DNA of 64,000 bases from Escherichia coli (GTDB taxonomy: Bacteria; Pseudomonadota; Gammaproteobacteria; Enterobacterales; Enterobacteriaceae), in assembly GCF_036507355.1 (NCBI RefSeq), contig NZ_AP027877.1. One strand, 5' to 3'. The position numbers are program-made. The number at the start of each line of letters is the position of its first letter. Within the stretch, counting starts at the first letter, position 1. This document shows positions 21,001 through 51,000 of this stretch, one piece after another.

Positions 21001-24000
21001 GCGCGTTGAGCGCATTCGCGCGGGCGACGTTTTCGATCCGCAAACTAACTTCGGCCCGCTGGTCAGCTTCCCGCATCGCGATAACGTGCTGCGCTATATC
21101 GCCAAAGGCAAAGAGGAAGGCGCGCGCGTACTGTGCGGCGGCGATGTACTGAAAGGCGATGGCCTCGATAACGGCGCATGGGTTGCACCGACCGTGTTCA
21201 CCGATTGCAGCGACGAGATGACCATCGTGCGTGAAGAGATCTTCGGGCCGGTGATGTCCATTCTGACCTACGAGTCGGAAGACGAAGTCATTCGCCGCGC
21301 CAATGATACCGACTACGGTCTGGCGGCGGGTATCGTGACGACGGACCTGAACCGCGCGCATCGCGTCATTCATCAGCTGGAAGCGGGTATTTGCTGGATC
21401 AACACCTGGGGCGAATCCCCGGCAGAGATGCCCGTTGGCGGCTACAAACACTCCGGTATTGGCCGCGAGAACGGCGTGATGACGCTCCAGAGTTACACCC
21501 AGGTGAAGTCCATCCAGGTTGAGATGGCTAAATTCCAGTCCATATTCTAACCAGGAGGTTTATTTGCAATTTGACTACATCATTATTGGTGCCGGCTCAG
21601 CCGGCAACGTTCTCGCTACCCGTCTGACTGAAGATCCGAATACCTCCGTGCTGCTGCTTGAAGCGGGCGGCCCGGACTATCGCTTTGACTTCCGCACCCA
21701 GATGCCCGCTGCCCTGGCATTCCCGCTACAGGGTAAACGCTACAACTGGGCTTACGAGACGGAACCTGAACCGTTTATGAATAACCGTCGCATGGAGTGC
21801 GGACGCGGTAAAGGCCTGGGTGGATCGTCGCTGATCAACGGCATGTGCTACATCCGTGGCAACGCGATGGATCTCGACAACTGGGCAAAAGAACCCGGTC
21901 TGGAGAACTGGAGTTATCTCGATTGCCTGCCCTACTACCGCAAGGCCGAGACCCGCGACGTGGGCGAGAACGACTACCACGGCGGCGACGGCCCGGTGAG
22001 CGTCACCACCTCCAAACCCGGCGTCAATCCGCTGTTTGAAGCGATGATTGAAGCGGGCGTGCAGGCGGGCTACCCGCGCACGGACGATCTCAACGGTTAT
22101 CAGCAGGAAGGTTTCGGCCCGATGGATCGCACCGTCACGCCGCAGGGCCGCCGCGCCAGCACCGCGCGCAGTTATCTCGATCAGGCCAAATCGCGCCCAA
22201 ACCTGACCATTCGTACTCACGCCATGACCGATCACATTATTTTTGACGGTAAACGCGCGGTAGGCGTCGAGTGGCTGGAAGGCGACAGCACCATTCCGAC
22301 CCGCGCGACGGCGAACAAAGAAGTGCTGTTATGTGCAGGCGCGATTGCCTCACCGCAGATCCTGCAACGCTCTGGCGTCGGCAACGCTGAACTGTTGGCC
22401 GAGTTTGATATTCCGCTGGTGCATGATTTACCCGGCGTCGGTGAAAATCTTCAGGATCATCTGGAGATGTATCTGCAATATGAGTGCAAAGAACCGGTTT
22501 CCCTCTACCCTGCCCTGCAGTGGTGGAATCAGCCGAAAATCGGTGCGGAGTGGCTGTTTGGCGGCACCGGCGTTGGTGCCAGCAACCACTTTGAAGCAGG
22601 CGGATTTATTCGCAGCCGAGAGGAATTTGCGTGGCCGAATATTCAGTACCATTTCCTGCCAGTAGCGATTAACTATAACGGCTCGAATGCAGTGAAAGAG
22701 CACGGCTTCCAGTGCCACGTCGGATCGATGCGCTCGCCAAGCCGTGGGCATGTGCGGATTAAATCCCGCGACCCGCACCAGCATCCGGCGATTCTGTTTA
22801 ACTACATGTCGCACGAGCAGGACTGGCAGGAGTTCCGCGACGCAATTCGCATCACCCGCGAGATCATGCATCAACCGGCGCTGGATCAGTATCGTGGCCG
22901 CGAAATCAGCCCCGGCACGGAATGTCAGACGGATGAGCAGCTCGATGAGTTCGTGCGTAATCACGCCGAAACCGCCTTCCATCCGTGCGGTACCTGCAAA
23001 ATGGGCTACGACGAGATGTCCGTGGTTGACGGCGAAGGCCGCGTGCATGGGCTGGAAGGCCTACGCGTGGTGGATGCGTCAATTATGCCGCAGATTATCA
23101 CCGGCAATTTGAACGCCACGACAATTATGATTGGCGAGAAAATAGCGGACATGATTCGTGGACAGGAAGCGCTGCCAAGGAGCACGGCGGGATATTTTGT
23201 GGCAAATGGGATGCCGGTGAGAGCGAAAAAATGAGTCGTGATGTGAACTAACGCAGGAACCGATCAGATTGAGAGTTACCGTTCCAGAGAGGGGGGCTGA
23301 ATCCTTATATAAACACTGAGGTAACTCTCATGCTTCATAGTGACAACCTCGCCAGCAAATTCTAAGCGGACTCGTTCAATCTGGCTGATGAAGGTGCTAT
23401 GAATGCACTGATAAACCGCAGGTGAAATGCCACTCAGCTTAAGAATTACGCCGCTAGTGTTCCTGGCTATGGTGACTTGTTCACTCCCGCTCACGGTTAG
23501 CATATACGAAAAGGGTTCTTGAAACGAGGACAAAAATAAGTCAGACCAAAACAACGTGGAGCTTTAAACACGATTCGTATAATTTATTAGCAGTGATTTA
23601 TTTTTACTCTTCTTTAGTTAATCATCATGCTTAAATATTTTTTAGCACAAGATTATCGCTTCGCTAACATTTTAGTTTACATTGATTTCCAATTGATAAT
23701 AAAAAGTTGTTAATAAGTTTATGCGAAAAATAAAAATTGTTGAAATACTCTCCAGCAAACGAATGCAAAATAAACAAACTGAGGTTTACAAAAAAACAAA
23801 AGCTATTCAAAAGAACATTTTTAATTTATTAGCAGAGTTCATTAACAATGGTTTACTCACGACCAGAAAATTAAAGAACACCTTGCAATAATATGTATTT
23901 ATAAATTCATATCATTGATATTAAACTAATCTCACCTTCTACCTTATAATTTCACCAACCAAAAACAAAAGAAAAATCAATTAGATACACAATAAAGCGT

Positions 24001-48000: not shown

Positions 48001-51000
48001 AACAACGTAGTACGATGAACATTGCGTACAACCTTCCCGATTTACATTTCTGAACTTCCTCCCTTGTTTACCTATTGCGTAATGCGCCTGCTACTACCCG
48101 GCAGGCGCGTTATCTTTTTACGGACAAACAATCATGCAACCAGAAGTTGAAGTATTAACCGATCATAATGAGCTAATTTGTTCGAGCTTTATTGAACACA
48201 TTGCCAACACATTAAATTTAGGAGTGGTGTACAACTAAACCTGCAGCCAAGGATGTATAGTGAGCGAAGCCCTATCAGGCCTTTTTGGTCAGTAGATAAG
48301 ATTGATCTTCGTTGATAGAATTTACTTACACCAGCTGTTACATTAAGATAATTTTTTGGTGGGAGAATGATAAGATCTTACGTAACAATTTGATTTTAAT
48401 GGTGCCGATAATAGGAGTCGAACCTACGACCTTCGCATTACGAATGCGCTGCTCTACCAACTGAGCTATATCGGCCCTGAAAGGACATGTTCACGAACGT
48501 GAATCACGGTGGACAAGGTTAAAACTAACCGGGCGATGCGTCAATGGCCTTGTGAATCAAATGGCTACTTTTGCATCACCCGATTTTATTTACGCACGAA
48601 TGGTGTAATCACCAATGCCGATCCACTTGTAAGTGGTCAGTGCTTCCAGCCCCATTGGGCCACGCGCGTGGAGTTTTTGTGTGCTTACCGCCACTTCCGC
48701 ACCCAGTCCAAACTGGCCGCCGTCGGTAAAACGCGTAGAGGCGTTAACGTAAACAGCGGACGAATCCACTTCGTTAACAAAACGCTGGGCGTTGCGCATA
48801 TCGCGGGTCAGGATCGCATCGGAGTGTTGTGTGCCGTGTTCACGAATATGGGCGATGGCATCGTCAAGATCGCTGACGATTTTGACGTTCAAATCTAATG
48901 ACAGAAACTCATCGTCATACTCTTCGGCTTTAACCGCCACCACCTTCGCGGGGCCTGCCTGCAACTGTGTCAGCGCAGCTGCATCTGCGTGTAATGTCAC
49001 GCCGCTTTCCGCCATTTGTTTGCTTAATACGGGCAGGAAGCTATCGGCGATGTTTTTATTCACCAGCAACGTTTCTACCGTATTACATGTGCTCGGACGC
49101 TGAGTTTTCGCATTGACGATTACTTTCAGGGCTTCAGCAATCTCTGCACTTTCATCAACATAAATATGGCATACGCCTATACCACCTGTGATCACCGGGA
49201 TCGTCGACTGCTCGCGGCACAGTTTATGCAAACCAGCCCCGCCGCGCGGGATCAGCATGTCGATGTATTTATCCATACGCAGCATTTCACTGACCAGCGC
49301 ACGGTCAGGATTATCAATCGCCTGCACGGCACCCGCCGGTAAGCCACAGGATTTCAGGGCGTCCTGAATCACCGCCACCGTTGCCGCGTTAGTGCGACAG
49401 GTTTCTTTGCCACCACGCAGGATCACCGCATTACCGGTTTTCAGGCACAGCGAAGCGACATCAACCGTCACGTTCGGGCGCGCTTCATAAATCACGCCAG
49501 TAACCCCCAGCGGTACGCGACGACGCTCAAGACGCAGGCCGCTGTCCAGTACGCCGCCATCGATTACCTGCCCCACCGGATCGGCGAGGTTGCACACCTG
49601 GCGCACATCATCGGCAATGCCTTTCAGCCGTGCGGGCGTCAGTGCCAGACGGTCAAGCATCGCTTCGCTAAGGCCATTGGCTCGCGCGTCAGCAACATCC
49701 TGGGCGTTAGCGTTGAGGATGATTTCGCTTTGTGCTTCCAGTTCATCGGCGATTTTTTCCAGCACGCGATTTTTTTCGCGGCTGGAGAGTTGCGCTAATT
49801 TATACGAGGCTTGCTTCGCGGCAATGCCCATTTGTTCCAGCATCGGCCAGCTCCTTAACGGGTAATCATGTCATCACGGTGAACGGCAACCGGGCCGTAT
49901 TCATATCCCAGTATTGCATCAATTTCTTGCGAGTGGTGTCCGGCAATACGGCGTAATGCATCGCTGTTGTAACGACTGACGCCGTGGGCGATATCGCGAC
50001 CTTCGAGGTTACAAATGCGGATGACTTCACCACGCGAGAAATTGCCAGTCACGCTTTTAATGCCTTTCGGCAACAGGGAGCTGCCGCATTCAAGAATGGC
50101 GGCAGTTGCCCCTTCATCTACCGTGATTTCACCCGCCGGCGGCGCACCGAAAATCCAGCGTTTACGGTTTTCAAGCGGAGTCGCCTGGGCATGGAACAGC
50201 GTACCGACGGAAATGCCTTCCATCACATCACCAATGACGCCCGGCTTGCTGCCCGCGGCAATAATGGTGTCGATACCCGCACGGCAAGCCACGTCCGCGG
50301 CCTGCAATTTGGTACTCATGCCGCCAGTTCCGAGGCCTGAAACGCTGTCACCGGCAATCGCGCGCAGTGCGTCATCAATACCGTAAACATCTTTAATCAA
50401 TTCTGCCTGCGGATTACTGCGCGGGTCAGCGGTATACAAACCTTTTTGATCGGTCAGTAACAACAGTTTATCGGCACCCGCCAGAATCGCCGCCAGTGCA
50501 GAAAGGTTGTCGTTATCGCCGACTTTAATCTCTGCCGTAGCGACAGCATCGTTCTCATTGATTACCGGAACGATATTGTTATCGAGCAACGCACGCAGGG
50601 TGTCGCGGGCGTTCAGGAAGCGTTCACGGTCTTCCATATCAGCACGGGTCAGCAGCATTTGCCCGACGTGAATGCCATAAATTGAAAACAGCTGTTCCCA
50701 CAGTTGAATCAGTCGACTCTGCCCTACCGCCGCCAGCAGTTGTTTCGAGGCGATAGTCGCTGGCAGTTCTGGGTAACCCAGGTGCTCACGTCCGGCGGCG
50801 ATCGCGCCCGACGTCACAATAACAATCCGATGCCCGGCGGCATGTAACTGCGCGCACTGGCGAACAAGTTCAACGATATGGGCACGGTTCAGGCGGCGCG
50901 ATCCGCCTGTTAGCACACTGGTGCCGAGTTTTACCACCAGCGTCTGGCTGTCACTCATGATTCTCTGCCATTCAATTTTAGGAAAAATGATATCAAACGA

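Follow-up and report, generated by a model that had tools for sequence, protein, structure and literature searches.

A probably natural, non-K-12 arrangement of the betA–thrW region of Escherichia coli, scarred by insertion sequences and carrying an island-borne lactate module

The subject of this report is the interval between betA and thrW in a window of 64,000 nucleotides of Escherichia coli contig NZ_AP027877.1 (assembly GCF_036507355.1). The window very likely represents a natural non-K-12 state of the variable proA-thrW...betA region, in which no resident genes have moved. About 50 kb of the DNA found between betA and thrW in K-12 is lost from this E. coli-type chromosome at insertion sequence (IS) scars. 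The lut gene cluster in the interval is a horizontally acquired second copy and not a relocated ykgEFG. The arrangement is ordinary IS- and island-driven strain variation and does not challenge current understanding.

The distance from betA to thrW is 25,165 bp in the window. In K-12 MG1655 it is 62.6 kb, from the end of thrW at 262946 to the start of betA at 325577, and the region runs thrW, CP4-6, pao, ecp, ykgMO, eaeH, rcl, ykgEFG, ykgH, betA. A preliminary description of the window had given 25 kb and roughly 60 kb, with lutABC next to betA in K-12; both distances agree with the measurements, and ykgEFG does adjoin betA, with ykgH between them. The alignment to MG1655 proposed there was carried out by local megablast of the whole window against positions 255000-345000. 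It shows the window to be the reverse of K-12 and fully collinear, with all K-12-homologous blocks in one descending series, in one orientation, and separated by three gaps. The blocks are as follows.

Window 2420-12632, K-12 342567-332357, 96.9% identity: yahJ to pdeL
Window 17275-23339, K-12 331536-325472, 97.6%: betT, betI, betB, betA
Window 25683-31337, K-12 296285-290631, 98.4%: intF' to yagJ and IS1
Window 30573-35363, K-12 279932-275134, 98.4%: IS1, afuB', afuC, mmuM, mmuP
Window 44976-52670, K-12 266369-258676, 98.8%: yafY' to ykfI, thrW, proAB, phoE, crl
Window 52663-55569, K-12 257907-255001, 99.3%: 5' end of crl, frsA, gpt, pepD

Because these blocks are collinear and in one orientation, their order can be explained without inverting or transposing any resident gene. 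The earlier proposal of at least one transposition or double inversion is not supported; the sole out-of-series match (37186-40054 against ykgGFE, 83.2% DNA identity) is a different locus. The companion proposal of several IS-associated deletions is supported, as each of the three gaps relative to K-12 is bridged by IS DNA: 296286-325471 (29.2 kb), 279933-290630 (the argF block), and 266370-273954. The interval is made up of approximately 12.4 kb of K-12-homologous sequence, 3.9 kb of IS DNA, and 8.8 kb that is not in K-12. IS DNA is present at each joint between K-12-homologous blocks, but the joints do not all coincide with IS ends, as had been thought. IS termini lie exactly at the novel joints of the IS3-family element (24696/25682), IS1 (30575/31334), and IS5 (35348/36542). 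The other two joints are internal IS breakpoints, at IS2 position 628 against yafY (44978/44979) and at IS3-family/IS1 (~25293).

The lut genes that fall outside the K-12 series belong to an accessory lactate module.

36543..43995, minus strand: the module, with a 3' fragment of gntP (gntP'), lutC, lutB, lutA, dld, and lctP
37187-37882, minus strand: lutC
37875-39302, minus strand: lutB
39313-40032, minus strand: lutA
40107-41852, minus strand: dld
42240-43793, plus strand: lctP

The five complete genes are intact, and gntP' is a fragment only. Dld is a D-lactate dehydrogenase of 581 amino acids, and the LctP-family permease has 517. The lut genes match ykgEFG in number, order, and length (239, 475, and 231 amino acids), and the proteins are 86-95% identical: 94.6%, 94.9%, and 85.7% for LutA, LutB, and LutC against YkgE, YkgF, and YkgG. 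At the DNA level identity is 83.2%, in contrast to 97-99% for the orthologous blocks. Unlike ykgEFG, the cluster is linked to dld, lctP, and gntP', is island-borne, and occurs in ~2% of complete genomes. The complete module was found in 105 of 5,426 complete E. coli genomes; the remainder match only through ykgEFG at ~83%.

The preliminary description read this cluster as the resident lutABC (ykgEFG), moved from betA to IS5/mmuP by IS-mediated transposition or two inversions. Lut-type genes (37187-40032) do lie next to the IS5-like element (35348-36542) and mmuP, but they are not ykgEFG. Relocation would agree with the fact that no other block departs from K-12 order, and also with the position of the cluster between the IS5-like element and IS1. 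Other strains carry the module at several chromosomal sites, including the ssrA island, so that it is loosely mobile. The 83.2% identity is nevertheless far below that of orthologous DNA, the gntP fragment is likewise only ~83% identical to E. coli gntP, and relocation would not bring dld, lctP, and a gntP fragment, none of which is part of ykgEFG. The module is instead 94.4% identical to a Citrobacter braakii locus, and both loci coexist in some genomes; in AREA_C483, ykgGFE and the module stand side by side. Relocation is thus contradicted by the data and extremely unlikely.

The donor of the module can be narrowed by the C. braakii match. Strain ATCC 51113 is the sole species representative that matches an exact 27-mer from the gntP-lutC spacer, and its 94.4% identity extends over gntP-lutCBA, with 87% over lctP. 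In this strain lutA is followed directly by lctP, and dld (window 40178-41810) is absent. The module therefore either would come from another Citrobacter-like donor or would itself be mosaic. Its entry may have occurred by recombination between related islands or IS copies, which would have placed a Citrobacter-like module, bounded by an IS5-like element and IS1, as different cargo in the middle of a CP4-6-type island at thrW.

In Z226-5 and AREA_C483, the order IS5-gntP'-lut-dld-lctP-IS1-afuB'-afuC-mmuM-mmuP-mhpT is a circular permutation of window 30575-44350. The permuted unit adjoins a second mhp cluster in both genomes and lies near clpK/hsp20 in Z226-5.

The segment 30575-44350 was considered as an IS1-flanked composite transposon and rejected as such. 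The insB gene of the left IS1 is frameshifted, the right copy is a 355-bp fragment, and there is no target duplication. Direct IS1 repeats are present, but other genomes hold circular permutations or parts of the segment and not the same unit.

On the betA side, the window leaves the K-12 sequence shortly after betA and re-enters it within intF.

21564..23234, plus strand: betA, starting with TTG like its K-12 counterpart and closing the bet block (collinear with K-12 331536-325472)
23340..24695, plus strand: non-K-12 DNA, an AT-rich spacer (35% GC) and ipbA', which adjoins betA in many E. coli
24696..25682, minus strand: IS3-family remnant, unnamed and not IS911, with both termini kept (TGAATCGCCACGG... 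and ...CCGTGGCGATTCA)
25293..25635, minus strand: IS1 fragment, IS1 positions 426-768, 100% identical to K-12 IS1I
25683..30574, plus strand: intF', yagN, ykgV, yagM, yagL, yagK, yagJ' (K-12 CP4-6 296285-290635, 98.4%)

IpbA is a FimB-like tyrosine DNA invertase, also known as HbiF or FimX (PMC3203889). In the window it is reduced to its first ~127 codons (open reading frame 24313-24717), cut at 24695 by the IS3-family element. The order in strain FDAARGOS_943 is pdeL, ehaA, betT, betIBA, ipbA, hyxR, hyxA, hyxB, ykgH, ykgGFE, rclR, from which the window insertion at 12633-17274 is recognized as ehaA. The intF gene keeps only its C-terminal ~196 codons, and ~270 codons at the 5' end are gone.

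The element beside ipbA' is a member of the IS3 family. Its OrfB matches the IS3-family transposase model NF033516 (E = 1e-76), and a full copy of the element has orfA and orfB, a length of 1229 bp, and TG...CA ends. Alignment to the full copy in strain 06-00048 assigns 24696-25299 to the 3' half of orfB and 25636-25682 to the last 47 bp. RefSeq copies at 99.7% identity carry only the annotation "IS3 family transposase". The preliminary description had placed an IS911-like fragment beside betA. An IS element is indeed there, but it is 1.46 kb away from betA, with the spacer and the 5' part of ipbA between them, and it is not IS911. Neither K-12 IS911A fragment gives a blastn match, translated matches are 34-58% over short stretches, the OrfB region is ~49% identical to IS3 (translated), and the termini read TGAATCGCCACGG.

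The IS911' and first IS1' had also been counted as two separate block boundaries. They are one, as IS1 25293-25635 is nested within the IS3-family element, whose two termini (24696 and 25682) are present. The interior joint is at a GTAT microhomology. IS1 may have inserted into the IS3-family element at a later time, with an internal deletion then disabling both.

Since a single IS3-family element has both termini at the ipbA'/intF' joint, one IS bridges the largest gap, from ipbA' at its left end to intF at K-12 296285 at its right end. This gap (K-12 296286-325471, at least 29 kb) also takes the 3' end of ipbA and hyxRAB, and the genes gone are yagP, paoABCD, yagU, ykgJ, ecp, ykgMO, fdeC, rclABCR, ykgEFG, ykgH, and hyxRAB. 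As a consequence, both intF and ipbA are incomplete, and the locus keeps the island-borne lactate gene set but no native ykgEFG. The IS3-family element may itself have caused the ipbA–intF loss, through an adjacent deletion or through recombination of two of its copies.

Alternatively, the ipbA–intF deletion might have arisen by illegitimate recombination at a GATT common to ipbA (GGATTAGC) and intF (TGATTGCC), with the IS3-family element inserting afterwards and duplicating ATT. The IS-free joint would then read GGATTGCC. A target duplication of 3 bp is typical of IS3-family members, and identical ATT triplets do flank the element, with GATT at the breakpoints in both parental sequences. For an IS to land exactly on an existing joint, however, is a coincidence of about one in a million, while a chance triplet match is expected at about 1 in 64 and is likelier in AT-rich targets. 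Moreover, the same IS end abuts DNA that starts with CTC in a near-identical draft genome, which places this end in a rearrangement. Only a slim chance is given to illegitimate recombination, and a deletion made by the IS3-family element is preferred.

Independent assemblies with 99.9-100% identity to the window share the ipbA'|IS joint. The truncated ipbA' reading frame of 134 residues is present without a mismatch in four short contigs, of which two match the window at 99.9-100%. Contigs from GCA_905398585.1 (11564-24770) and SRR31122001 (11564-24723) cross the joint at 99.96% identity or more. A contig of GCA_047852605.1 matches equally well and stops at 24692, three bases short of the joint.

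GCA_905398585.1 (flanks 99.98%) also has the same nested IS3-family/IS1 end 375 bp from thrW, as seen at contig ends only. There, the IS end (11449-11967 against window 25539-25682) adjoins a different, resolvase-type island, and the neighboring DNA starts with CTC. This would imply a within-clone difference of ~22 kb between the window and GCA_905398585.1, and the nested IS end fits repeated rearrangement at that end. A more specific proposal is that the transposase-less IS3-family::IS1 remnant in ipbA served as a fixed end for successive one-sided deletions within one clone (flanks at least 99.96% identical). The nested series would have been driven in trans by other copies, and the Citrobacter-like module would replace the lost ykgEFG function. 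This proposal rests on the two right flanks, intF' in the window and DNA 375 bp from thrW in GCA_905398585.1, and it is regarded as doubtful.

The second gap corresponds to the argF block and is occupied by a single IS1.

30575..31334, plus strand: single IS1 variant, 760 bp, 91% identical to K-12 IS1
31335..35347, minus strand: afuB', afuC (fbpC), mmuM, mmuP (K-12 279162-275150, ~98.4%)

This IS1 had been described as full. At 760 bp it carries 2-nt and 6-nt deletions, and insB is frameshifted. It sits exactly at the outer joints of K-12 IS1C (yagJ side) and IS1B (afuB' side), with the argF block absent and no target duplication at its flanks. The single-IS1 yagJ-IS1-afuB' joint is found in 50 complete genomes, including PD7, 2EC1, and NCM3722, the last of which is a K-12 strain. 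The argF block is therefore repeatedly lost or missing at IS1. The absence in the window probably does not derive from the K-12 IS1B/IS1C pair, because the IS1 here is 9% diverged from both, and it need not represent a deletion in this lineage. The same neighborhood is affected by IS1-mediated argF loss in K-12 and by the laboratory Δ(argF-lac) and Δ(lac-proAB) deletions, and NCM3722 has the same single-IS1 joint; the window differs in that its IS1 is a decayed, 9%-diverged variant. Large deletions of this chromosomal region are well tolerated (PMC11148124).

The joint at mmuP is formed by an IS5-like element.

35348..36542, minus strand: intact IS5-like element with a transposase of 326 amino acids

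The element shares 95.6% identity with K-12 IS5A and 99.7% with the second IS5 of PD7 (IS5b). It meets the upstream flank of mmuP at the same nucleotide as K-12 IS5A and PD7 IS5a (window 35318-35382; K-12 275100-275200). Its orientation is inverted, with the left inverted repeat (IRL) facing mmuP in the window and the right inverted repeat (IRR) in K-12 and PD7. No target duplication flanks 35348..36542. The empty site, in which mmuP is followed directly by mhpT, is present in Z226-5 and 2EC1. In PD7, an 11.5-kb hsd block separates mmuP|IS5a from IS5b|gntP', and IS5a and IS5b are inverted relative to each other. Their 12-nt termini (GGAAGGTGCGAA) are identical, and a deletion between these in a PD7-like precursor would yield the window joint exactly; this later deletion would have removed the hsd block with the second IS5. 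No IS5 target duplications that reconstruct earlier states were seen in PD7.

Two other origins of the joint were rejected. Inversion by recombination between IS5 copies keeps the same IS end toward the outer flank. Independent insertion of IS5 at the same nucleotide is unlikely because the site in the mmuP flank is not known as a typical IS5 target.

The third gap is filled by replacement DNA between the IS5-like element and the IS1'/IS2' fragments, and it ends at the thrW-proximal end of the island.

43996..44350, plus strand: IS1 fragment, IS1 positions 768-414
44351..44978, plus strand: left end of IS2, 628 bp, with insC and the start of insD, inserted into IS1
44979..48399, plus strand: 3' part of yafY (yafY'), ykfB, ykfF, yafX, ykfG, ykfH, yafW, ykfI (K-12 CP4-6 266369-262947, 98.8%), the thrW-proximal island end
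48400..48475, minus strand: thrW, tRNA-Thr(CGU)

The IS2 piece is broken internally and joined inside yafY at K-12 266369. PD7 and F3_13_1_3 have ~4 kb more at this point, namely the rest of IS1, an IS5 fragment, a GTPase gene, DUF932, yfjR, ypjK, and the 5' end of yafY. A later deletion at the IS1::IS2 scar may have taken this ~4 kb. A CP4-6/P4-type island at thrW is supported by collinearity with K-12 CP4-6 at 98.4-98.8%, with a truncated integrase. The 3' end of thrW has no second copy within the window, so no attR is present; the distal island end lies in the deleted interval.

A rival reading is an assembly chimera, mis-joined at the repeated IS copies; in one version, the 13.4-kb stretch enclosed by the two direct IS1 copies (30575 and 43996) would belong elsewhere or exist as a circle. 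The IS1 at 30575 and the fragment at 43996-44350 point the same way, agree at every base over at least 300 nt, and are 13,421 bp apart. The circularly permuted order IS5-gntP'..lctP-IS1-afuB'..mmuP does exist in other genomes, and three joints are unique to the window. Those unique joints, however, tie IS-terminal or IS-internal sequence to unique DNA (mmuP|IRL of IS5, IS1 position 414|IS2 end, IS2 position 628|yafY), which repeat collapse cannot create, and a path through inverted IS5 copies could not connect mmuP with gntP'. The yagJ-IS1-afuB' and IS5-gntP' joints are present in other complete genomes, and the ipbA'|IS joint is present in independent assemblies. A chimera is accordingly judged very unlikely, and the remaining uncertainty of placement is the 13.4-kb segment between the direct IS1 copies.

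Several observations weigh against a natural state reached by the steps given above. No genome collinear with the window across the interval was found among the 5,426 complete E. coli genomes (megablast, coverage of at least 80%), and in the same search no complete genome covered at least 80% of the joints at 22.9-25.8, 34.7-37.8, or 43.3-45.6 kb. The mmuP|IS5 and IS1'|IS2'|yafY' joints were found in no other searched sequence. The IS3-family copy has no transposase gene of its own, and ATT on both of its outer flanks resembles a 3-bp target duplication. The flanking ATT fits simple insertion better than an IS-made deletion; the two triplets may be a true duplication or match by chance. At the IS5 joint the mechanism is inferred, as is the sequence of events overall. 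Separate look-ups found no exact match to the mmuP|IS5 or IS3-family|intF' joints in the JGI metagenomes, and exact protein look-up gave no record for either the intF' reading frame or the IS2-yafY fusion frame.

A Shigella origin was considered, because core identity to complete genomes is at most 98.1%, and dropped. Both the bet and the yah genes are intact, and the ~39 kb beyond the island showed no IS copies.

The thrW end is variable among close relatives. Draft genomes that are 99.98-100% identical to 48396-59843 each have a different thrW island, and near-identical drafts leave the window sequence at 48396-48409. The near-identical draft assemblies include GCA_905398585.1, GCA_047852605.1, GCA_016660925.1, GCA_044688185.1, and GCA_021425525.1. 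In CP057838.1 (98.6%; 3687521-3709191), the BetA protein is the same, betA and proA are 5.6 kb apart, and the order is betA, IS5-family transposase, prophage remnant, integrase, proA; this genome departs from the window after betA at the same point where K-12 does (window 23340). Together with the differing thrW islands, CP057838.1 indicates that the interval is hypervariable and that its collapse recurs in nature. At least four different elements occupy thrW in genomes that have the same ProA and do not differ from the window between thrW and a point beyond dinB. These are an element resembling an integrative and conjugative element, with TrbL and an S8 peptidase; an integrase and prophage; a resolvase island; and the CP4-6-like island of the window.

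Three named islands are the closest comparisons. K-12 CP4-6 has the same tRNA site, outer modules at 98.4-98.8%, and the same positions for the IS1|afuB', yagJ|IS1, and IS5|mmuP joints. The shared modules are intF-yagN-ykgV-yagM-yagL-yagK-yagJ, afuB'-afuC-mmuM-mmuP, and yafY...ykfI. Unlike K-12 CP4-6, the window is without the 5' 270 codons of intF, the argF block, perR, ykfA, yafZ, ykfC, and IS30/IS911A. It has in addition an inverted IS5 and gntP'-lut-dld-lctP, and the attR end and ~29 kb of adjoining chromosome are deleted.

The CP4-6-like island of PD7 (NZ_CP074047.1) has the same order and orientation at 99.0-99.7%: intF-yagN...yagJ-IS1-afuB'-fbpC-mmuM-mmuP-IS5...IS5-gntP'-lutC-lutB, then yafY-ykfB. 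It differs in its intact intF, in the 11.5-kb hsd block between inverted IS5 copies, and in having kept GTPase-DUF932-yfjR-ypjK. In PD7, lutA-dld-lctP is lost to IS1, and the toxin end is followed by other genes, with thrW attachment not seen. The ssrA (CP4-57-type) island of F3_13_1_3 (NZ_CP074754.1) carries the cargo dapA'-IS5-gntP'-lutCBA-dld-lctP-IS1 complete, followed by the conserved GTPase...toxin-antitoxin module. It differs in its ssrA site, its intA integrase, and the lack of an afu/mmu segment.

The locus illustrates clearly how the proA-thrW...betA region is reshuffled and shortened by IS elements and related tRNA-site islands. K-12 is a poor reference for this region, as it is without ipbA-hyx and ehaA and has its own IS1-flanked argF block. 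The result matters chiefly as a correction for annotation and comparative genomics, in that apparently relocated genes are a horizontally acquired second copy. A mobile D/L-lactate utilization module of the Citrobacter type is present in approximately 2% of complete E. coli genomes.

Other features were observed elsewhere in the window. Between pdeL and betT stands the autotransporter adhesin gene ehaA (12759-16807, minus strand), which K-12 does not have. A frameshift seems to interrupt it near the C-terminal barrel, with a frame of 1263 amino acids followed by short frames. In near-identical drafts ehaA is called as 1237 + 84 amino acids, and CP057838.1 and FDAARGOS_943 have an intact gene of 1327 amino acids. 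The crl gene is uninterrupted (52663-52670). It does not have the IS1I insertion of K-12, whose 8-bp target duplication shows up as the overlap of the two K-12 alignments.

The yahH region (4869-5232) contains three to four tandem 93-bp repeats, which are also present at K-12 339756-340115, with a weak 79% match at 61470-61641. Window 1-2420 has no K-12 match beyond yahJ, where K-12 has yahK. An open reading frame at 535-1521 (minus strand) resembles a sugar ABC-transporter substrate-binding protein of the RhaS/LsrB type, at scores below the family cut-offs.

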